Shown: positions 12,872-59,254 of the stretch, in pieces | Numbering within the stretch: position 1 is the stretch's first letter | How the letters are laid out: the number at the start of each line of letters is the position of its first letter | Assembly (NCBI GenBank): GCA_033286805.1 | Contig: GCA_033286805.1_4727.1 | Source: a phage | Reading direction: 5' to 3' (one strand) | Length of the DNA: 64,000 bases | The notes under the pieces: generated by a model | What the model was told of the DNA's origin: nothing | What the model saw: only the letters and a program-made list of their open reading frames with translations | The model's database searches: none | Made by a program: the position numbers and the translations under genes

Positions 12872-15800
12872 TTATCTTACGTTACTGCTATTCTGCTGTT
12901 CGCTGAACCAACCGTACACCTTGAGATCGGTACCATATCTCAGTGCGATATACGCATTCAGCGCAGCACAGAACAAAGACGCGAATGCCCATATCAGCGA
13001 AGGATCAACATCTTCCGTTACCACTGGGAGAGTATTATCCGGTTCCCATGATGGAGAACTGTCCATGAACGTCGTGTACCATTCCCGCCGTTGTTCTTCA
13101 GTGGTAAAGTCGCTATGGGGTTCCAATGCTTCTTTTGCCAGACGTCGATATTCGAACATATGCGTTGCTAAAGCCGATGAGTTACCAGATTCGCCTTCAT
13201 AGTTCGGATCCACCGCATAACAGAGTTCTGTGGAATCTAACAAAGCGACCGCCTGTGTGATGCTGTCGGCAGTGCCTGCACCATAGAGCTCGATAGACCG
13301 CGAGAGCTTCTCACAGAACGCATTTAACGCGGCAGGATTGGACACCTGAAGGTCAAGGCCTAATGTCCACGGATAGTTACTGAATACACCCGTAAACCGC
13401 GGCATAACACCCAACAGATGTTGTCCGATTACAGCACGGTTATAAACAGCCCGGTTATAGACTTGAAACGCAGCCTCCAGGGCTTGGTTATAATGACGAC
13501 GAAGTTCATCACGCGTGTTGCGGAACCTGTTTGCCGCGAGACTTGTGGCTGCAACGCTACAAACATCGTAATTGGTGGACGAGAGCACAACCTCGTTAAG
13601 ATCGAACGATTCCTGTTTCAATGTTCCGCTAACAGCTGCCGCTTCGCTGTTCGCTTTATCGACAACTGTACTCAAAGCGTTGATGTAACGTTTAGCTCGG
13701 ACCTCCAACCATTGTGCGATGCCGAGAATATCCACCGCAGCTTTAGCAAGATCGCGTGCATTCACGATTTCGTTCTTCAACGCCCCTAAACCTTTATTTT
13801 CAGGCGATGAGGCTTGTTGACGAATCATGCTGTTCAACATGGTAAGCAGATTATCCAACTCATGTCCGCTGACCTTGTTACGCGCATCGGTAATCGGCCC
13901 TTGCAGGAATTTACGGCAACCATCGTTGTATCGAATCAGTTTATCCACATCGATAGATTCGTTCGTAGATTCCTTGAACTGATCCTTCAATTCTTCACGG
14001 TAGTCGTGGATTTCACTTGCGAGATTATCGATAGTGATACCGTCATGTCCAAGAAGAACTTTATTGAAGTTACCTTTCTCGAATGCCAGAGCAAGACCTT
14101 CACGAATCTTAGCGAGTTTATCCTGATCGAGTTCACGACCGTTCGATAGCTCTTTCACTTCCGAGCTGATTAATGCCGAAACGTTACCCAGATTGTCGGT
14201 AACTCCTTTGAACGCTCCCGACCAAATCGTTCCTACTTCAGCATATTTCGCAATGGTCTGAATACCGACGGTGTGTAGCGACGCTAAACGTTTCTTCGTG
14301 CCTTCGGTAAGCAGAGCGTCTTTAGCTCGCGTAAGCTGACTGTTATTAGCTTCCGCCTGCTGAATCGCTGCTTTCGCACTTCCATTACGCCAGCTCTTAA
14401 CCAGCCAATCAACCAAACGTTTTAGGATATTGACGGTGTATTCCATTGTCCGCCGTAACGTTTCCCACGCGCTTTCTGCGGTATAGATGCCGTACCCTTC
14501 CATCTTCAACGCTTTCAAGCTTGTTTGACGTGCCAACCATTCTACCGTTGCAGAGCAAACGTTTACTAATGCTTCCAGGTAGTTGTAATAGACGTCTGTT
14601 GCAGTTGTTTCGTTGAACTTTGAATGCAGATAGAACTGATCGTAAAGTTCGTCGTCATCGCCGAAGGCATCATAGTTCCACAGTTCTGTATCACAACCTG
14701 TACCGCAGAAGACGTCAGCTGTCGTAAACTCTTTAAGCGCTTTAGCTGCGTCATTTGTCAGGAATTTACCTGTTTCAACTACATCGTCAACATTAAGCTT
14801 GGGGAGTTCGTCGGTGACTGGCTCTTCCAACATCAGCATATTGAAGAATGTGCTGTACTTGTATCCGAGCCATTTTGGATAACTGCTTTCAGGGATCGTA
14901 GACAGCGGCTTGATTTTCTTGGCTTCAGCCAATGTGTCTTTTGCGACCTGATATTGGTTTTCCCCAGCCTTGACGCGACGTAATGCTTTTTCTTCCAACT
15001 GCTTAAGCTTGGCATGGCGTGCTTGTGCTGGAGCTTCAACAAGTTTTTGTACCGACCGCATTGCAGAAATCGCTTCTTTTAATACGATCATCGGCATACG
15101 AACTTTACCGTCGTCGAAACTAAGAGCGCGAGCGACACGTTTACTTACGACCGGCTTATCATGGATATTTCGTTCCACCCACGATTTGTTTGCGTAAGTT
15201 TGAGCGATCTGCTGTTGGATATTTTCAAGGTATTTCCAGCTGCTGGATGCTTTATTATCCAAAAGCGGATTCGGTCCCTTCTTATCGAAAAGTTTCAGAA
15301 TCGGACCAAAGAAACCTTCCTGTACGAGTTCGATACGCGTGTATCCGTCAGCCGCTTCGATTTCTTCTTGGGTTTTGTCCCAGAGCTGTTCACTACGGAC
15401 AGCAGTAGCTGTTTCAGATACCGACATAACAAGCTCGGCAACAACTTCAGCGCAGGTCAGTACGGTACGCACGCATTGCAGTAGCATACGCTGGTAAACG
15501 ATACGGGCGTTTTGTAAACGTGCGATAACCGCTAAATAACCGATATTGTCAAGACGTTCGTCGGCTTGAGCAGAGTCAACACGTTCTATCAGTTGTTTAA
15601 CCAGCGCGGCTGTTTCCGGATAATCGTTCACGACGTCACGCATAATTCGTGATGCGAAAACCGCGGTACCTAAAACAGTGAGGAGTGTTTTACTATCCCA
15701 TTCTTTTGGTGTCGCTACCGATTCAGTAGGGATGAGATTTCCCGCCTGGTCGAAGTACGGCATAAGGACATTGATATCAGTAGACGGAACAGCAGTAATT

Positions 15801-16477
15801 GCGTTATACTCTTCATCCGCACCATCGTTGCCAGACGGCTGTAATGCAAGTGCTTGTTCAAGGATTTTGCGGTCAGCGGCATAAAGCGCCGACAGAGCTT
15901 GCGTTGCCGCAACCAAATCAACGATCGGCGACCAGAGCTGTGCGAGCTTACCTTCGTATTTCCGTACAGCGATAGCAAGGTCTTCTTTTACGTCTGGATG
16001 ATTGATTAAACCACCCAATGTTTCATGGATGGCAGAAAAACGTTCGGAATGTGCTTGTGTCAACGCGGTAAAATCGTCAACGTACGACGCATTTTCTTCA
16101 AGGCGTGTAAGTTCCTGCTCCAGGAGATCTTTTACTTGCGTAGCAGATGCGTTTCTCAACTGTTCACCGATAATCGCGATGGCTTTATCGACAACGCGAC
16201 AAGCTTCATTGAAGCCGGTTGTTGAAGGTAACTCGGTCCATAATGCCAGCGGCTTACCTTCCATTGCGTCAGGAAGGGAATATGACAACATTGCTAGTTG
16301 TTGACGTGATACCTGTTTGTCACGATGTAATGTTTCTTTCAACGCCAGAAGCTCATCAAGACCCACACTGCTAGGGATCGTGGGATGTGATACAGCGTTG
16401 ATGTTTTCTGCTAATGACTCAAGAACCAATAAACCATTTTCAGCGGAAGATAACCCTGCTTTAAGGTATTTGTTCAT
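12872..16477 (-). CDS. large putative virion/internal protein (1201 aa), paralog family
   Basis: ATG with GGAG SD; contains RIELVQEGFFGPILKLF, related to the motif in the 430-aa paralogs. Confidence 0.7.
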   Translation of the reverse strand: MNKYLKAGLSSAENGLLVLESLAENINAVSHPTIPSSVGLDELLALKETLHRDKQVSRQQLAMLSYSLPDAMEGKPLALWTELPSTTGFNEACRVVDKAIAIIGEQLRNASATQVKDLLEQELTRLEENASYVDDFTALTQAHSERFSAIHETLGGLINHPDVKEDLAIAVRKYEGKLAQLWSPIVDLVAATQALSALYAADRKILEQALALQPSGNDGADEEYNAITAVPSTDINVLMPYFDQAGNLIPTESVATPKEWDSKTLLTVLGTAVFASRIMRDVVNDYPETAALVKQLIERVDSAQADERLDNIGYLAVIARLQNARIVYQRMLLQCVRTVLTCAEVVAELVMSVSETATAVRSEQLWDKTQEEIEAADGYTRIELVQEGFFGPILKLFDKKGPNPLLDNKASSSWKYLENIQQQIAQTYANKSWVERNIHDKPVVSKRVARALSFDDGKVRMPMIVLKEAISAMRSVQKLVEAPAQARHAKLKQLEEKALRRVKAGENQYQVAKDTLAEAKKIKPLSTIPESSYPKWLGYKYSTFFNMLMLEEPVTDELPKLNVDDVVETGKFLTNDAAKALKEFTTADVFCGTGCDTELWNYDAFGDDDELYDQFYLHSKFNETTATDVYYNYLEALVNVCSATVEWLARQTSLKALKMEGYGIYTAESAWETLRRTMEYTVNILKRLVDWLVKSWRNGSAKAAIQQAEANNSQLTRAKDALLTEGTKKRLASLHTVGIQTIAKYAEVGTIWSGAFKGVTDNLGNVSALISSEVKELSNGRELDQDKLAKIREGLALAFEKGNFNKVLLGHDGITIDNLASEIHDYREELKDQFKESTNESIDVDKLIRYNDGCRKFLQGPITDARNKVSGHELDNLLTMLNSMIRQQASSPENKGLGALKNEIVNARDLAKAAVDILGIAQWLEVRAKRYINALSTVVDKANSEAAAVSGTLKQESFDLNEVVLSSTNYDVCSVAATSLAANRFRNTRDELRRHYNQALEAAFQVYNRAVYNRAVIGQHLLGVMPRFTGVFSNYPWTLGLDLQVSNPAALNAFCEKLSRSIELYGAGTADSITQAVALLDSTELCYAVDPNYEGESGNSSALATHMFEYRRLAKEALEPHSDFTTEEQRREWYTTFMDSSPSWEPDNTLPVVTEDVDPSLIWAFASLFCAALNAYIALRYGTDLKVYGWFSEQQNSSNVR

Positions 16478-21358: not shown

Positions 21359-23110
21359 ATGAGCGAACAAGAACGAAAACCTAAGAAGAAACTGCTCGGT
21401 ATTCAATGTCGACACATCAGCTATAACGAAGCGAACGATGGCAGCAAGAACGACCTCATGATCGCAAAAGAGATCATGTTCTTCGATGATAATACGCAAG
21501 CGACGAATCTTCGCTTCTTCGAGAATTACAAACGTCCGTTTTGGGTGACGGTAGAGAGTAAACGTAAGAACAAATATAAAAAGGAAAGCGAGAAGCTCTC
21601 GCATGTGCGTCGCTATGATGTCCGCCAAAGTGAACTGGTTGAAAAGATCAGTTCGGTGCTTTATAAAAGACGTGCTGATGACAACACCCGTCTACAGCAG
21701 CTTGCACGGAGTCCATACCTCTATGGCACGGACGTTAGCGCCAGCTGTTATTTAAAAACCCAGTACAACACAAAATGGCCGGAATACGTCGATAAATTAC
21801 CCGCTTCCATTGCCTGTTTCGATATCGAAACCGACGTTGTCCACGGGCACGGTAAGATCGTCTGTATGTCTATTACAATGGGATACAATGCGATACTTTG
21901 CTATACCAAGGACTTCGTTGGTCATATTCCGAATGCGATTGAGAAAACCCATGAGAAGATTCGATATTACCTGGCCGAACGTCTGAATACCAAAGAAGAT
22001 CCTCATGCGTTCGAAAAATATCATTACGATGTGCGAATCGTAGAAAGTCCGGCGCAAGCAGTCATCCAGTGCATGCAGAAGGTTCACGAATGGCAGCCGG
22101 ATTATCTCCTTGGCTGGAATATCGCGTTCGATATTCCGCGCATGCTCCAGGCACTGAACGAGGAAGGGTATCGTCCCGAGGATGTTTTCTCCGATCCTCG
22201 TGTACCACCTAAATATCGTATTGCTCGCTGGGTACCACCGAAGACAGACAAGGTATCTGCTTCAGGTCGTAAAACCAACCTTACCCTTGAGCAGACCTGG
22301 CCGATGTTTTATACGATGGCCACATACCAGGTTATGGATGCGATGTGCGGTTATAAGTTCGTTCGTTTAGGAAGACCGGATGAAGGACGCTATTCACTCG
22401 ATGCGGTGTTAGAGCGAAATAAATGCCATACGAAATTAAAAGCGATTCCTGGTACAGAGGGGTTCACGGAGCTTGCGTGGCACGAAGAGATGCAAACGAA
22501 CCATCAAATCGACTACGGCGTATATAACCTTTGGGATAACCAGGGTATCGAGGCGTTGGACCAGAAAACAAAAGACTATTCGATGACCATCCCTATTCGT
22601 TTGGCGGCGTCGGATTTGAAAGATTTCAGTTCTAACCCTAAACGTATCTGTGACAAACTTTTCTTCGTTTATCTTAACCGTGGGGAAGTCATGGGATGCA
22701 CTGCCGACGACATGACCCAGGAAGAAGATAAGTGGGTTATCTCACGAACCGGACATATCGTCACATTACCGTGCGATCTCATGGCGGACAACGGCATTCA
22801 TCTCTTCTGGGATATGCCGAACCTGAGAAGTTATATCCGTCTATTCGTTGCAGACCTCGACATTAGCAGTTCATACCCAAACGGGCAGATCCTGTTGAAT
22901 TTATCCAGAGCATGTGTTTTTCGTGAGCTCTCGCGCATTGAAGGCGTCTCTGACTATCAATTCAGGAAGTTAGGTATCAACTTTATTACCGGAGGTAAAA
23001 CGAACGCTGTAGACTTCTGTAGAATCGTTTATAAAGCACCATCGATGTTCGAACTCTTAGAACATTTCGATGCAACGCGTCCAAAAGGGGAAGCGCGGAC
23101 CATCGAATGA
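21359..23110 (+). CDS. family-B DNA polymerase N-terminal fragment (3'-5' exonuclease domain plus palm motif A)
   Basis: Exo I CFDIETD, Exo II GWNIAFD, Exo III YNLWD, motif A DLDISSSYP; ends ~75 aa after motif A with no motif B or C. No SD before the ATG. Confidence 0.6.
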   Translation: MSEQERKPKKKLLGIQCRHISYNEANDGSKNDLMIAKEIMFFDDNTQATNLRFFENYKRPFWVTVESKRKNKYKKESEKLSHVRRYDVRQSELVEKISSVLYKRRADDNTRLQQLARSPYLYGTDVSASCYLKTQYNTKWPEYVDKLPASIACFDIETDVVHGHGKIVCMSITMGYNAILCYTKDFVGHIPNAIEKTHEKIRYYLAERLNTKEDPHAFEKYHYDVRIVESPAQAVIQCMQKVHEWQPDYLLGWNIAFDIPRMLQALNEEGYRPEDVFSDPRVPPKYRIARWVPPKTDKVSASGRKTNLTLEQTWPMFYTMATYQVMDAMCGYKFVRLGRPDEGRYSLDAVLERNKCHTKLKAIPGTEGFTELAWHEEMQTNHQIDYGVYNLWDNQGIEALDQKTKDYSMTIPIRLAASDLKDFSSNPKRICDKLFFVYLNRGEVMGCTADDMTQEEDKWVISRTGHIVTLPCDLMADNGIHLFWDMPNLRSYIRLFVADLDISSSYPNGQILLNLSRACVFRELSRIEGVSDYQFRKLGINFITGGKTNAVDFCRIVYKAPSMFELLEHFDATRPKGEARTIE

Positions 23111-23158
23111 ATCAAGTATGTTGATCCTCGTTTAACAAAAAAGAAAACGCATGCGAAG

Positions 23159-23190
23159 CCCCTCCCCCTGGCGGAAGCCGGAGGGAGGGG
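23159..23190. terminator. GC-rich compound hairpin with flanking T/A runs (bidirectional)
   Basis: CCCCTCCC...GGGAGGGG stem followed by TTTT on plus and preceded by an A-run; between convergent genes. Confidence 0.65.
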
Positions 23191-23208
23191 TGGAGGTTTT
23201 ATGTGTTT

Positions 23209-23655
23209 TTAATTATTGTTGGTGGGGTTATCGTCCGGTTTATATTCAATGCCGTAGGCGACGTAACGGTCTGTTGTATGGACGACAAGCGAGATAGGGA
23301 AATCATAATGCATAGTTTTGTCTCGAACGAGCTGAGTAAAGAGATCCATATAACGTATTAAGTCTTCACTGGTGTAATCAGAAGGGAAGAAGACATCGAT
23401 GGTTATTGAATCTTCATAGAGGCGTATGACCAACTTATCCAGAAGGTCGGCATATTGGTTAGCCGGGGTGACGTCCAGCTGACAGATGTCACGATCTCCT
23501 TCGTCTCGCGATACCCACATCGTGGTATCCTGTAATGAGGTTTCAAGGATCTCGAAAACACATTTTGCTGTAAGTCTTAGTTTATTTGTTACGTCATGGT
23601 TAGGTGAATAATGGTCACGGATGTTTTTCACTGCGTCTTTGATAGAGAAAGTCAT
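23209..23655 (-). CDS. small paralog-array protein (family member A)
   Basis: Start moved to the ATG with AGGAA SD (MTFSIKDAVKNI); C-terminal DFPISLVVH...YGIEYKPDD shared with the neighbouring paralogs. Confidence 0.6.
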   Translation of the reverse strand: MTFSIKDAVKNIRDHYSPNHDVTNKLRLTAKCVFEILETSLQDTTMWVSRDEGDRDICQLDVTPANQYADLLDKLVIRLYEDSITIDVFFPSDYTSEDLIRYMDLFTQLVRDKTMHYDFPISLVVHTTDRYVAYGIEYKPDDNPTNNN

Positions 23656-23686
23656 TGTTGCTGTTCCTGTTATAGTCAACATATAG

Positions 23687-23717
23687 CCCTTCCCTAGCCG
23701 TCAAGGCCGGGGAAGGG
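23687..23717. terminator. hairpin CCCTTCCC...GGGAAGGG
   Basis: 8-bp stem flanked by ATATAG and TATG; between paralog genes. Confidence 0.55.
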
Positions 23718-23732
23718 TATGTTTACGTGTAA

Positions 23733-24128
23733 TTACTTTTTGGCGTCCGTTGGTGATTCAGTATGTTTCTCGCTGCTGGTGTACCAGAGTAGGTATGTCG
23801 GGAAAAGATTAACCTCTAAGCTAAACGGGATATTATATTTTTCTTCCATTTTGCAGAGATGTTCTTTAAGTAAATCCCTTGCTTCTTTGTTACGGCGAGC
23901 GGAGTGCCAATGTAGTTCTTCGTTCTCCTTTACCAGTACTTCTACAATGATACGCTGCTCGTGAACCTCGGTTTTCACAATAGCAAGTAAATCGTTACTA
24001 TCGAAACGGGTAAAACGAATGTACGAACCAGGCGTTTTTTCTTGTTTAACGATATCGATCATAGTAGAAATGTGTGGGTGATCGATGTTGTCGTTAACTG
24101 CTTTAACGATGGAATCTACAACGCTCAT
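23733..24128 (-). CDS. small paralog-array protein (divergent member)
   Basis: N-terminus MSVVDSIVKAVN resembles the paralog N-termini; AAGGA SD. Confidence 0.55.
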   Translation of the reverse strand: MSVVDSIVKAVNDNIDHPHISTMIDIVKQEKTPGSYIRFTRFDSNDLLAIVKTEVHEQRIIVEVLVKENEELHWHSARRNKEARDLLKEHLCKMEEKYNIPFSLEVNLFPTYLLWYTSSEKHTESPTDAKK

Positions 24129-24168
24129 TTTTTTTTATCCTTAATGTTATCGGTTTAGAAATAATATT

Positions 24169-24933
24169 TTATTTGCTGTTATCTTTATCGACAGTTGTTA
24201 CCCATGATGGGAAAGCCGGATGGAAACAGAGCGTGAACGTAACCTTCGTATCGTATTTAAACGCACGGTCCACTAGCCGAGTATCGAACGTTTCCCTTAG
24301 ACCGTCATCATCGTTATCGATGACAGCCATATCCCTTAATATCCCAAGCACGTTAACGCCATCTGGTGTCTGGGTTACAACAAGTCGTCGTAATGGTCCG
24401 CATGTATAATCACGTACGTATCCTTTCTTCGGGTCCGATACTCTATTTAACGCATCGTGATTTTCGATGAATTCATCGGCAATACGAGTGATGTGTTCCC
24501 TTGCTTTATCTGGATCGTATTCTGCTAATAGTTCCTTCGTGTCGAATGTTATCGCGTTATTAGCATTCGATTCAGAAGGGAAACATAAAACTAAACGAAC
24601 AGGGTATTCGTATTGATCTGTTCTTGTTTCGAAAGCATTAGCTAAACACGGCTTGTATGCCTTTGCGTCGACATTGTCCAAACACGGATGCAATAATGCA
24701 TGAATAACGGCACCATCATCAGTTAAACCGAATTCCATAAATTGTGTTTCATCGGTGTCTGTTACGGTTTTCTGAAGGTACGCTTTACCGTTAACAATAT
24801 CGGTATCCCACATATCGTCGTTTAACGATTCTTCAAACTTATCGAATATATGGTTTACGAGATTGACGAGTTCATCAATACGGCACTGTTGGTTGAATTC
24901 GATTAATCGTTGAACTTTATCTTTGATAGACAT
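24169..24933 (-). CDS. small paralog-array protein, apparently duplicated domain (254 aa)
   Basis: MSIKDKVQRL N-terminus; internal YEYPVRLVLCFP and VTFTLCFHP repeats; AGGAG SD. Confidence 0.6.
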   Translation of the reverse strand: MSIKDKVQRLIEFNQQCRIDELVNLVNHIFDKFEESLNDDMWDTDIVNGKAYLQKTVTDTDETQFMEFGLTDDGAVIHALLHPCLDNVDAKAYKPCLANAFETRTDQYEYPVRLVLCFPSESNANNAITFDTKELLAEYDPDKAREHITRIADEFIENHDALNRVSDPKKGYVRDYTCGPLRRLVVTQTPDGVNVLGILRDMAVIDNDDDGLRETFDTRLVDRAFKYDTKVTFTLCFHPAFPSWVTTVDKDNSK

Positions 24934-24935
24934 GA

Positions 24936-25394
24936 TTACCCATTAGCTCCTTCTTCGTCTGGAGAGTATTCCATCGTGTAGAATTCATAACCGTCGGAAA
25001 ACTTGAGTGTTAATGTAATAGGGAAATCGCACGGCATAGCTGATTTCGTAAATGCGTTATTAGCAACATCAGCCAACCGACGTATAGCATCAGTCCCGCT
25101 GACGCTGAATGGTAGTTGTATGTTGATAAGGATGCGGTGCTTGTAAACATAGAAAACAACGGTGCTGTCAAGATAAACGCTATGGAACGGTATTGTTGGG
25201 ATGCGTTCCACGATGGTAAAATACGTCCCGTCATTATCGCTATGTCCCACCGACCAAATATCGGATTTGCGTAGATTTTGTTTGAGAGATTCGATACTTC
25301 GAGTGACGGTATCAGCAACAGGTGCGACGTAAGCGTCTTTATGCGAGTCGAAAAGTTCGTTGACGTTAGATTCGAATGAATACATTGTTGCCAT
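24936..25394 (-). CDS. small paralog-array protein
   Basis: C-terminal DFPITLTLKFSDGYEFYTMEYSPDEEG; GAGGT SD. Confidence 0.6.
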   Translation of the reverse strand: MATMYSFESNVNELFDSHKDAYVAPVADTVTRSIESLKQNLRKSDIWSVGHSDNDGTYFTIVERIPTIPFHSVYLDSTVVFYVYKHRILINIQLPFSVSGTDAIRRLADVANNAFTKSAMPCDFPITLTLKFSDGYEFYTMEYSPDEEGANG

Positions 25395-26649: not shown

Positions 26650-26675
26650 AAAAAAAAGGTGGGGCGAACCCCACC
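26650..26675 (-). terminator. rho-independent terminator (minus strand)
   Basis: GGTGGGG-CGAA-CCCCACC preceded on plus by A8, so a U-tract follows on the minus transcript; just past the stop at 26701. Confidence 0.75.
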
Positions 26676-26700: not shown

Positions 26701-27126
26701 TTAATTCAGTGATGCATATAACGCGTAACGACTGTAGATCTCAACCGCCGGTCCGTTATGCGTTAACAGACCATCCTGGTTGTAATATTGGAAAAATGAA
26801 TAACGTTTGTCGAAGTGATAAACAAAAGCAATGTCTTTGCTGCCAAGACCTGTGATGCGTGGTCTGTTTTTATCTAGCAGAGCTTTGACTTTTAACAGTG
26901 TTGCCGCACGTGCTTTAACGTTAGGGATCAAGCCATCACAATCGATATAAACTGTGTAACCTGTTTCAGATGTTGCGACGGTTGTATTACGATTGACGCG
27001 GAAGATTTTTGTTTCGTATGTACTATCTTCAAGAATTGGGTTTTGTTTTTCGTATTTTCGTTTACGTAGAAATTCTACAACGGTGATATAGTTAGCGGTG
27101 ATATGTCCGGTTATAGCTTGTAACAT
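26701..27126 (-). CDS. hypothetical protein
   Basis: 141-aa ORF; AAGAGGA SD lies inside a conserved leader element. Confidence 0.6.
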   Translation of the reverse strand: MLQAITGHITANYITVVEFLRKRKYEKQNPILEDSTYETKIFRVNRNTTVATSETGYTVYIDCDGLIPNVKARAATLLKVKALLDKNRPRITGLGSKDIAFVYHFDKRYSFFQYYNQDGLLTHNGPAVEIYSRYALYASLN

Positions 27127-27244
27127 CTTGACATCCTCTTATATCGGATTGATTACAGTTATCTTAAATAGGCGATAAGATATTTTGCTCTTATCACTAA
27201 GGTAATGTAGTCGCGAAATAAACTGCGTTAAAACGAAATAAAAC
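27127..27244 (-). promoter_or_regulatory. conserved leader/promoter-like element, copy 1
   Basis: 30 nt directly upstream of the ATG are 27/30 identical to 53683-53712, with a second conserved block ~90 nt upstream (ctaaggtaatgtagtcgcgaaataa). Confidence 0.5.
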
Positions 27245-27254
27245 AGCATAGAAA

Positions 27255-27297
27255 CCTCCTCCCCCATCCTTCAAGAGGACGGTGGGAAGAGGGAGAG
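27255..27297. terminator. imperfect GC-rich hairpin
   Basis: CCTCCTCCCCCATCC...GGTGGGAAGAGGGAGAG directly after the stop at 27299; left flank CATAGAAA. Confidence 0.5.
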
Positions 27298-49211: not shown

Positions 49212-49948
49212 TCGTCAATGTCTCCTTCTGCAAACAGGGTCAATTTGATTTCGGGATCATAGAACATGGTGATCACACCATCTCGCTCTGCTGAACGCTG
49301 TGCTGTCCATATTAACTGTTCATCCCGAATATCAAACTTATACCGTTCGTCGCTAACCACCGCTTCCGCATCGACATAGTGATAAATGCCACCTTCAGGA
49401 TTCTCAATCCAACCACGTACCATCAGACGGTCTTTCTGCTTACGTGTGAAGAATCTATACGGATCTTCGCAGGTTTGCCAAACGTCACCGCTCTCGCTTA
49501 CCAGTTCGTCATACACCTTCGAAAGCTCGTCAGGCACTGGAATCAAAATGTTATCCTGATAGCCTGACCAGAAACGACGTACGTCTTGTAATAGATCGTC
49601 GCTTTGTAGTTTAACCACATGCGTGTGATTCGCAAAATCAGTTTTTGATTCGCTGAACCAAAACGCTTTTTCGTTCCCTACAACGACATCGATTCGATCA
49701 TGTTGAACACAAACCCACCCATAAATCCATCCGTAACCATCAACGTTATATAACGTTGTTTGGTAACTGACAATATCGATATCATCAAACGATGCTAATA
49801 AAGCTTTAGCCGCTAGAAGCGGGGAGAAGTTTTTCGATTGCGATGCTTTACGGATGTCTTCTTTGATGAGTAATTTACCGTGAATTGGATGTTCAATAAC
49901 AAAACCACAGGAGAGCATGATGCTTCCTTGATAACGTGCTTCTTGCAT
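49208..49948 (-). CDS. hypothetical protein
   Basis: 246-aa ORF, GAGGAA SD. Confidence 0.6.
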   Translation of the reverse strand: MQEARYQGSIMLSCGFVIEHPIHGKLLIKEDIRKASQSKNFSPLLAAKALLASFDDIDIVSYQTTLYNVDGYGWIYGWVCVQHDRIDVVVGNEKAFWFSESKTDFANHTHVVKLQSDDLLQDVRRFWSGYQDNILIPVPDELSKVYDELVSESGDVWQTCEDPYRFFTRKQKDRLMVRGWIENPEGGIYHYVDAEAVVSDERYKFDIRDEQLIWTAQRSAERDGVITMFYDPEIKLTLFAEGDIDE

Positions 49949-53306: not shown

Positions 53307-53341
53307 GATAAAGATCCTTATTGAAATAAAATCGGTATAAA

Positions 53342-53361
53342 GGCCCCCATTTAGGGGGACC
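53342..53361. terminator. hairpin GGCCCCC-ATTTA-GGGGGACC
   Basis: Left flank TATAAA; between the 53365 gene end and the 53306 gene start. Confidence 0.5.
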
Positions 53362-53364
53362 TGA

Positions 53365-53682
53365 TTAGTTTGCGCGTAAGAAATGACCCAGAACCGTTAC
53401 GATTGGAAACAGCCCTGTAACAGTATCATCGCCCGAAAACATCATCATTGTTCCGTTAACGGTGATGAAACGGATGTCGGTTGCGGACCCATCGATAGCG
53501 ACAAAACGCATCGAGTTCGGTGGAAGGTCCTCAACCACTTCCACGAGATACTCGCGATTATCAAAGGCTTCTTTAACACGACGCATGAAACGAATCAGTG
53601 TTCCTTCCGCGTCGGCTTCCAAATGACCTAAGATATCGCGATTATTACGAATAGCAAATACAGCCATTTTAAACATACACAT
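53365..53682 (-). CDS. hypothetical protein
   Basis: 105-aa ORF directly preceded by a conserved leader element. Confidence 0.55.
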   Translation of the reverse strand: MCMFKMAVFAIRNNRDILGHLEADAEGTLIRFMRRVKEAFDNREYLVEVVEDLPPNSMRFVAIDGSATDIRFITVNGTMMMFSGDDTVTGLFPIVTVLGHFLRAN

Positions 53683-53790
53683 CTTGACATCCTTTTATAT
53701 TGGATTGATTGCTAATAATTCAAGGTGAAGCTGATTACTGTATTGCTTCACCTAGGTAATATAGCCGTGAAAATTAATGTATTAACCTAT
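53683..53790 (-). promoter_or_regulatory. conserved leader/promoter-like element, copy 2
   Basis: cttgacatccttttatattggattgattgc ... cctaggtaatatagccgtgaaaattaa, matching the 27127-27244 copy. Confidence 0.5.
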
Positions 53791-55201: not shown

Positions 55202-55283
55202 GATTACTGTCCTTTTGAAATATGTTTAGATAAGGAGGATTTACCGGGTATTAAAAAGTTATTTGGTATGTAATGTTTTTTTT

Positions 55284-58790: not shown

Positions 58791-59254
58791 TTCTTACCAC
58801 GTGTGTTATAATAGTAACGCTGACAAAGATGTGTGTGACGGTACTCCCGTTTGAACTCGACGCTGATAATGCGAGCAACTTCTCTCCAGTTAACTCCTTC
58901 ATGCCGAAGTGCTGTAATACGGTCTGAAATTTTGCACCATTCATCTGGGTCGTATCGTCGTAGCTTGAGTCGTCGTATTACGGAGGCGACACTCGCTCTC
59001 GATCGGCCAAGATGATTTGACAGTTGTTTAACCGAGTATCTGTGGATATTGTCGCGAATATAGGAAATCTCGTTGTTCGTATATGCCTCATTGGTTCTCG
59101 ACGAAGGGAACAGCATATACAACTTATTCTTAATCGCGCTTTCTGTGCGTTGAAATACAATAGCCAGATCACTAACCGGTGGTCTGGGTATCTGATCCGC
59201 GTAACTCTCGAGGCGTGAGAGTTCCTCATCTGTCCAGCGACGGTATTTGCGCAT
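58724..59254 (-). CDS. HTH DNA-binding protein, tandem paralog 2
   Basis: Start moved to ATG 59254 (MRKYRRWTDEELSRL) with AAGGAG SD; two HTH-like repeats. Confidence 0.6.
   Translation of the reverse strand: MRKYRRWTDEELSRLESYADQIPRPPVSDLAIVFQRTESAIKNKLYMLFPSSRTNEAYTNNEISYIRDNIHRYSVKQLSNHLGRSRASVASVIRRLKLRRYDPDEWCKISDRITALRHEGVNWREVARIISVEFKREYRHTHLCQRYYYNTRGKKWQQVKNTQQPKSHSYAETRAS

Follow-up and report, generated by a model that had tools for sequence, protein, structure and literature searches.

Predicted phiKZ-type early promoters and a conserved leader in front of two unrelated genes of a Goslar-like jumbo phage

Two unrelated minus-strand genes carry two separate conserved blocks in their upstream regions within the window, which here denotes the entire 64,000-nt stretch of phage DNA that was analyzed. 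The distal block (block A) belongs to a motif family that is spread over the genome of the related phage Goslar, while the proximal block (block B), which adjoins the start codon, precedes these two genes only. We consider it likely that the two genes form two monocistronic early units that share a promoter type and a translation-initiation leader kept by selection. The upstream regions would be instances of a single kind of regulatory cassette, each of which would drive a small early gene and consists of three parts. These are a phiKZ-type early promoter of ∼45 bp, a gene-specific RNA hairpin at the putative 5′ end of the transcript that most likely shields the mRNA from decay by RNase E and RppH, and a shared 28-nt leader that combines an extended Shine-Dalgarno sequence with an invariant AAUCAAUCC upstream of it, the AUCC of which can pair with GGAU. 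Such a leader would give both mRNAs equal translation-initiation properties, and the two unrelated proteins are predicted to be coexpressed as infection begins.

An earlier, sequence-only reading of this DNA had described a duplicated element of ∼110 bp and proposed that it serves as a shared promoter or leader for coregulation. The idea of a shared promoter or leader appears essentially right, although the promoter is common to a dozen other early units. The element is not one continuous repeat, since the ∼45 nt between the blocks are not alignable and two separate conserved blocks are left.

Phage background and the two putative transcription units

Megablast searches with both regions returned a single match, Escherichia phage vB_EcoM_Goslar (Goslar), at 95 to 96% identity, and the window is colinear with positions 59,161 to 125,082 of the Goslar genome apart from a few indels. 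Goslar, which itself carries both block copies, infects E. coli and belongs to the Chimalliviridae, jumbo phages that form a nucleus, and transcription in this family is carried out by two phage-encoded multisubunit RNA polymerases. Differences in gene content between the window and Goslar were seen at window positions 14508-16178, 22852-24949, ∼55234-55283, and ∼61025. The region of the Goslar NUMOD1/HNH endonuclease gp069 is replaced in the window, gp108 and gp120 of Goslar are without a counterpart in it, and a 1201-aa open reading frame of the window contains a stretch that is divergent from Goslar.

Besides the window and Goslar itself, the set of Goslar-like genomes comprised two contigs from IMG/VR, four from metagenomes (238 to 249 kb), several assemblies, and some shorter contigs. 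Leaders recovered from viral contigs, metagenomes, and assemblies amounted to 12 distinct gp075-type and 7 distinct gp105-type sequences, which were compared with each other. Viral, metagenome, and genome collections were scanned with an exact block B pattern, and matches without TCRAGATG after the match and without a promoter before it were discarded. These unrelated chance matches were L008, L028, L029, L031-L033, L038, L039, L041, L042, L047, L048, and L049-L054.

The first gene (26701-27126, minus strand) encodes a 141-aa homolog of Goslar gp075, and the second (53365-53682, minus strand) encodes a 105-aa homolog of Goslar gp105. Both are annotated as hypothetical in Goslar, and their homologs are confined to Goslar-like phages. 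Searches of Pfam and PHROGs gave no family for either gene or for four neighboring genes, and the literature search on Goslar gp75 and gp105 retrieved only unrelated gp105 proteins of other phages. The AlphaFold model of gp075 (pLDDT 83.8) had no informative fold match, and that of gp105 (pLDDT 46.8) was unusable. Structurally, the gp075 model came closest to an uncharacterized 163-aa protein of Goslar (A0A482GHL3; Foldseek probability, 0.96; TM, 0.41; identity, 9%), the length of which matches that of the neighboring gene gp073. Because of this agreement in length, gp070 to gp075 may constitute an array of diverged paralogs.

Both units appear to be self-contained and monocistronic, as judged from the hairpins at their borders. 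The gp075 unit is closed by an intrinsic terminator (26658-26675, minus strand), composed of GGTGGGGTTCGCCCCACC followed by T8, that is annotated as a terminator in Goslar. A terminator-like hairpin follows the gp105 homolog at 53341-53362 (minus strand), where GGTCCCCC, a loop, and GGGGGCC precede TTTAT (RNAfold, -14.8 kcal/mol); a simple terminator scan did not call it. On the upstream side, the gene that precedes the gp075 unit, a homolog of gp076, ends in another terminator-like hairpin with a subsequent T-rich tract (27255-27292, minus strand; RNAfold, -28.4 kcal/mol). This module is also present upstream in Goslar and its relatives and would insulate the gp075 unit from upstream transcription.

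The predicted early promoter and the hairpins that follow it

Block A, CTAyATTACCTwrGTGA, is located at 27210-27194 and 53764-53748 on the minus strand. The sequence-only reading had noticed this second block at both loci, but it lies 68 to 84 nt upstream of the ATG rather than ∼90 nt. As a loose 17-mer, block A is not significant by itself, and it corresponds to the core of two copies of a longer motif. A whole-genome scan of Goslar identified this ∼45-bp motif at 14 sites, all of them on the minus strand and each just upstream of a minus-strand gene (gp004, gp021, gp040, gp046/047, gp075, gp105, gp159, gp165, gp175, gp182, gp246, gp225, gp214, and gp200). The genes fronted in this way include gp246, which encodes chimallin of the nuclear shell, and gp165, which encodes an RNA polymerase beta subunit. 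Over its 45 nt, the consensus reads roughly aWWWtTTTCACGrC-TAyATTACyT-wrGTGA. TTTCACGrC precedes the core by 2 to 10 nt, with a TTAAy.CA-like element farther upstream, and GTGA follows the core at a distance of 3 nt.

A position weight matrix was built from the 14 Goslar sites. In Goslar it scored these sites at 31 bits or more and all others below 12 bits, a separation that is circular in that the same sites trained the matrix. In the window, the matrix recovered exactly two sites, at 44.6 and 48.6 bits, with the remaining sequence below 8 bits. The predicted early promoter copy 1, of the virion RNA polymerase type, spans 27190-27234 (minus strand; 44.6 bits), where the core TACATTACCT occupies 27209-27200 and GTGA, the predicted initiation region, occupies 27197-27194; its assignment draws on the matrix score, the 14-site Goslar family, and the published consensus. 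The predicted copy 2 spans 53744-53788 (minus strand; 48.6 bits), with the core TATATTACCT at 53763-53754 and GTGA at 53751-53748, and starts 3 nt past the stop codon of the upstream gene. The upstream block had been read as a two-copy duplication, and it turned out to be one of ∼14 copies of a general early-promoter motif in Goslar. A genome-wide search for further copies, which the sequence-only reading had suggested, produced the 14 promoter-motif sites, while block B was recovered at the two genes only.

Early promoters have been predicted in phiKZ (TATATTAC), 201phi2-1 (WTTTRARR_BTATATTACDWHDGTG), and N1M2 (TTTCARRYAKATATTATYWAAGTGWA) (PMC7058600, Table 2). AT-rich motifs centered near position -10 of early transcription starts are considered early promoters read by the virion polymerase (PMC7598289; cf. 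PMC11512511), and transcription in phiKZ-type phages is independent of the host polymerase (PMC7598289). The Goslar motif displays the features of the published type, namely, an AT-rich core of ∼10 nt resembling TATATTAC, -20- and -30-like elements, and a downstream GTG, and its 14 Goslar sites provide the many co-oriented copies before presumed early genes. The core is the same as that of the early promoters of phiKZ, 201phi2-1, OBP, EL, and N1M2, and the upstream T-rich/TTTCA element and the downstream GTG are likewise common to both. In the phiKZ-like phages, too, presumed early units, among them that of the nuclear-shell gene, are preceded by multiple copies in the same orientation. The Goslar-clade version is set apart from the phiKZ-like promoters by CACGrC, which separates the -20 element from the core, and by CyT after the core. 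Collectively, the prediction that the upstream block is a phiKZ-type early promoter in its Goslar-clade version is well supported by sequence and literature.

A Goslar RNA-seq report (bioRxiv 10.1101/2023.09.20.558163) describes early transcription from the injected genome. It also presents a transcription start of chmA at 5 minutes after infection, in a displayed sequence that begins 91 nt before the ATG; the motif in front of chmA begins 80 nt upstream of the chmA ATG. No paper describing the motif for Goslar was found in the literature search.

One of the Goslar early promoters, at ∼49,732 (L003, minus strand), falls inside the annotated 5′ end of gp047 (49,584-49,772). An ATG with a Shine-Dalgarno sequence is present ∼115 nt downstream of the core of this promoter, so gp047 probably starts farther downstream than annotated. 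The sequence upstream of the same promoter resembles the region upstream of the gp075 promoter (tatgctgt...cagtttatttcgcgac).

By analogy with the published promoters, transcription would start in or next to GTGA, close to window positions 27195 and 53749 (∼86,691 and ∼113,783 in Goslar), which would give both genes a 5′ untranslated region of ∼70 nt. Each promoter core is directly followed by a predicted hairpin (RNAfold), the sequence of which is gene specific. Leader hairpin 1 (27172-27197, minus strand) consists of GUGAUAAGA, an 8-nt loop (GCAAAAUA), and UCUUAUCGC, and begins in the predicted initiation region. In leader hairpin 2 (53724-53752, minus strand), GGUGAAGC and GCUUCACC enclose a loop of 13 nt. 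Among the 12 distinct relatives, 99% of the cells of the gp075 stem are paired. Seven pairs, counted from the second G of GTGA, are essentially fixed, and published phiKZ-type motifs place +1 where this G lies. Three further pairs vary on one side and are still paired via G-U wobble, while the loop is freely replaced (GCAAAATA, GCAAGATA, CATCGGGT, or GTAAAGTA). The gp105 stem is invariant in the 7 distinct relatives, with variation in 6 of the 13 loop columns. The aligned leaders of the relatives contained no double compensatory changes in the hairpin stems, so the support for the hairpins comes from the conservation pattern and not from covariation. The upkeep of pairs by wobble alone fits a structure in RNA rather than in DNA.

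Folding of the sequence downstream of the cores was a broader tendency in Goslar. The 42 nt after the 14 promoter cores fold better than shuffled sequences (mean z, -1.9; 8 of 14 below -2) and also better than random genomic 42-mers (P ∼0.01). A literature search found no description of a hairpin directly after Goslar early-promoter cores. The two leader hairpins have no U-run, and the terminator scan calls neither of them. At the extreme 5′ end of an E. coli mRNA, a hairpin is a classical safeguard against degradation by RppH and RNase E, and the leader hairpins most likely protect the mRNA from 5′-end-dependent decay by these host enzymes. They are similar to the ompA-type stabilizing stem-loops of E. 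coli mRNAs in that the stem is conserved, the loop is free to vary, and the pairing is strand specific by way of G-U wobble. The ompA-type hairpins lie ∼0 to 2 nt from the mRNA 5′ end, and the leader hairpins would lie at most a few nucleotides from their predicted 5′ end.

Recombination has left traces at the gp075-type promoters of several relatives. In L017 (1372-1427), L034, L021, and L043, an insertion of 45 to 55 nt with one or two extra hairpins resides inside the gp075 promoter; in L021 and L043, it is placed in the ∼130 nt upstream of the gp075 homolog. The insertions are flanked by direct repeats of the 3′ part of the promoter (TTACCTT or CCTwrGTGA), and the insert of L021 and L043 is very similar to the leader that naturally follows the early promoter of Goslar gp200 (∼226,695). 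This sequence pattern suggests that hairpin modules move between early promoters.

The conserved leader adjoining the start codon

Block B is located on the minus strand at 27124-27154 (AATCAATCCGATATAAGAGGATGTCAAGATG; Shine-Dalgarno GAGGA at 27138-27134 and ATG at 27126-27124) and at 53680-53710 (AATCAATCCAATATAAAAGGATGTCAAGATG; Shine-Dalgarno AAGGA at 53694-53690 and ATG at 53682-53680). The sequence-only reading was correct in placing a conserved block next to the ATG of both genes, and the two copies are identical at 28 of 31 positions including the ATG. Its similarity is not confined to the Shine-Dalgarno sequence and extends ∼20 nt upstream of it. The 31-nt consensus, AATCAATCCrATATAArAGGATGTCrAGATG, comprises 28 nt of leader and the ATG. 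A match to the block B pair was absent from 100 shuffles of the window. In an all-against-all comparison of 2381 Goslar ATG contexts, the block B pair (2 mismatches) was the only one with 6 or fewer mismatches. Block B precedes gp075-like and gp105-like genes only, at both loci, in every Goslar-like genome recovered. It is thus the leader adjoining the ATG, and not the promoter, that appears to be private to the gp075/gp105 pair.

The conservation of block B is most evident in comparisons with divergent relatives, where its identity amounts to 94 to 97%. Against L020, the gp075 protein of which is 76% identical, block B shows 97% identity, compared with 77% for the rest of the leader and 83% for the bulk of the coding sequence. 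The first 87 nt of the coding sequence are 56% identical in the same comparison, so the ATG marks the precise end of the conservation. When the window is compared with Goslar, block B is 90% identical and the coding sequences are 96 to 98% identical, and the closest relatives do not display extra conservation of block B. Purines at positions -20, -12, and -4, exactly 8 nt apart, are the only block B variants among close relatives; at each of the two loci, they occur as A in some genomes and as G in others. These A/G exchanges explain why block B does not surpass the gene in conservation among the closest relatives.

In the most divergent leaders (L019, L022, and L023), AAUCAAUCC and (A/G)GGAUG persist, while the ATATAA part is changed to ACACAA in L023 and to TTGTAA in L022; the last 7 nt also change in divergent leaders. 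As judged from the comparisons with divergent relatives, block B appears to be under purifying selection, and its simplest role would be that of a matched translation-initiation region. The extended Shine-Dalgarno sequence is either AAGGAUGU or GAGGAUG, and AAGGAUGU matches the canonical AAGGAGGU at 7 of 8 positions. AUCC and GGAU could form a 4-bp stem around a 9-nt A-rich loop, but this stem is weak (-2.5 kcal/mol; z, -0.25) and no better than in shuffled sequences. Because its arms are invariant, covariation speaks neither for nor against this stem.

Two other features of the leaders were considered. A short upstream reading frame from a GTG in the leader was rejected, as it is not conserved between the two leaders. 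In the Goslar gp021 leader (L003 ∼15,016-15,008, minus strand), AATCAATAC matches 8 of the 9 nt of the invariant start of block B and is situated 51 nt from the promoter core, versus 53 and 55 nt at the two block B loci. The rest of that leader is different, and the match may be due to chance.

Alternative explanations and comparison with known systems

Four other explanations were weighed against the reading of two early units with a selected leader. It is very improbable that the two genes are ordinary duplicates, i.e., diverged paralogs that have retained their upstream region. Both do encode small, clade-restricted proteins in monocistronic units of the same layout, but BLASTP found no alignment between them at an E value of up to 100, and a profile-profile comparison of the two families (hhalign) gave a probability of 0.3%. 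Moreover, the similarity stops exactly at the ATG, and the predicted order of secondary-structure elements differs between the proteins, with the gp105 model being of low confidence. The claim that the downstream proteins are not obviously similar was thereby confirmed, and by sequence the genes are not paralogs. The view that the element is a host sigma-70 promoter with ATATAA as its -10 element has hardly any probability in our estimate. ATATAA resembles TATAAT, and a weak sigma-70-like site (9/12) overlaps the TATATTAC core of copy 2. However, no site was called at ATATAA in either copy, and the counts of such sites were not above those in shuffled sequence. The box is situated 10 to 15 nt from the ATG, immediately upstream of the Shine-Dalgarno sequence, it is replaced in the relatives L022 and L023, and phiKZ-type phages transcribe without the host polymerase. 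The "ATATAA box" was consequently dropped as a promoter element; among divergent relatives, it varies more than any other part of block B.

The two remaining explanations concern the origin and role of block B. Block B could be a historical remnant of a cassette that was copied by recombination and kept through low divergence or gene conversion, with nothing but an ordinary Shine-Dalgarno sequence in it. Recombination is indeed visible at the gp075-type promoters of relatives, the same A/G polymorphisms are found at both loci in different genomes, as expected from gene conversion, and special conservation of block B is missing among the closest relatives. We nevertheless regard this explanation as unlikely. 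Both copies are kept in every genome found, including lineages with 56 to 76% protein identity, and the identity of block B exceeds that of the adjacent leader and of the coding sequence. The remainder of the two leaders has diverged past alignment while block B has not, unlike what the neutral decay of a single duplication would produce. The A/G states are also not concerted within genomes, as one locus of the window carries G while the other carries A, and L035/L036 carry A and G. The neutral remnant is therefore weakened by the clade-wide retention at two loci, the conservation above that of the flanks, and the divergence of the remaining leaders. Alternatively, block B may be the operator of a dedicated trans-acting regulator, such as a RegA-type repressor, an RNA-binding factor, or a small RNA, which would switch both mRNAs posttranscriptionally. 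The element overlaps the Shine-Dalgarno sequence and the start codon, occurs in front of these two unrelated genes alone, and is conserved throughout the clade. Between its invariant parts, AAUCAAUCC and GGAUG, lies a variable loop, as would be fitting for a small recognition hairpin, and ChmC, an RNA-binding protein of a related phage, prefers sites near start codons. No sequence motif emerged for ChmC, however, and an operator can hardly be defined from only two targets. A search for an antisense partner of block B elsewhere in Goslar found none within 8 mismatches, Rfam returned only chance-level matches for the copy 1 region (E values of at least 0.24), and no regulator was identified. This operator was given a low probability. 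A similarly low estimate applies to a more specific version, in which block B would act as a posttranscriptional control hairpin that hides the Shine-Dalgarno sequence, is recognized by a phage factor, and couples the translation or the early-vesicle export of the two early mRNAs.

Under the favored reading of two early units with a common promoter type and a selected leader, the 14 sites and their usable consensus likely represent the early promoter set of Goslar-type jumbo phages of E. coli. This set would be useful for the annotation of early genes and for the design of early-expression cassettes in a model phage that is genetically difficult. The genes gp075 and gp105 are flagged as strongly and separately expressed early genes (predicted) that are probably translated coordinately, which makes them candidates for roles in host takeover or antidefense. 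The combination of a 5′ hairpin and a shared leader hints at how early mRNAs made by the injected polymerase may be stabilized and translated. Current understanding is not overturned by these results, most of which describe ordinary phage gene regulation and would not surprise a specialist.

Known regulatory systems of T4-type phages offer two points of comparison. The targets of T4 RegA are translational operators common to several phage early mRNAs. Block B resembles them as a conserved sequence over the Shine-Dalgarno sequence and the AUG of unrelated early genes. It differs from them in having two targets only and a sequence unlike that of RegA sites. The second point of comparison is the PeSL cassettes of T4-type phages, which combine a promoter with an early stem-loop and mediate modular shuffling (PMC2839356, PMC4122927). 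The PeSL promoter is sigma-70-like, whereas no such sites above shuffle expectation were found here. The PeSL stem-loop is a terminator, whereas the leader hairpins would lie within the transcript without a U-run and separate terminators close the units. In PeSL, insertions, deletions, and replacements between close relatives, including gene swaps, are bounded by the repeats, and mini-circles occur; here, hairpin inserts between promoter repeats were seen at the gp075 promoter of several relatives. In common with PeSL, a strong predicted early promoter and a stem-loop are repeated before small genes of unassigned function, with signs of repeat recombination moving the modules. If block B does control translation or export as a hairpin, such control together with movable promoter-hairpin modules would give jumbo phages an equivalent of the mobile regulatory cassettes seen in T4-type phages.
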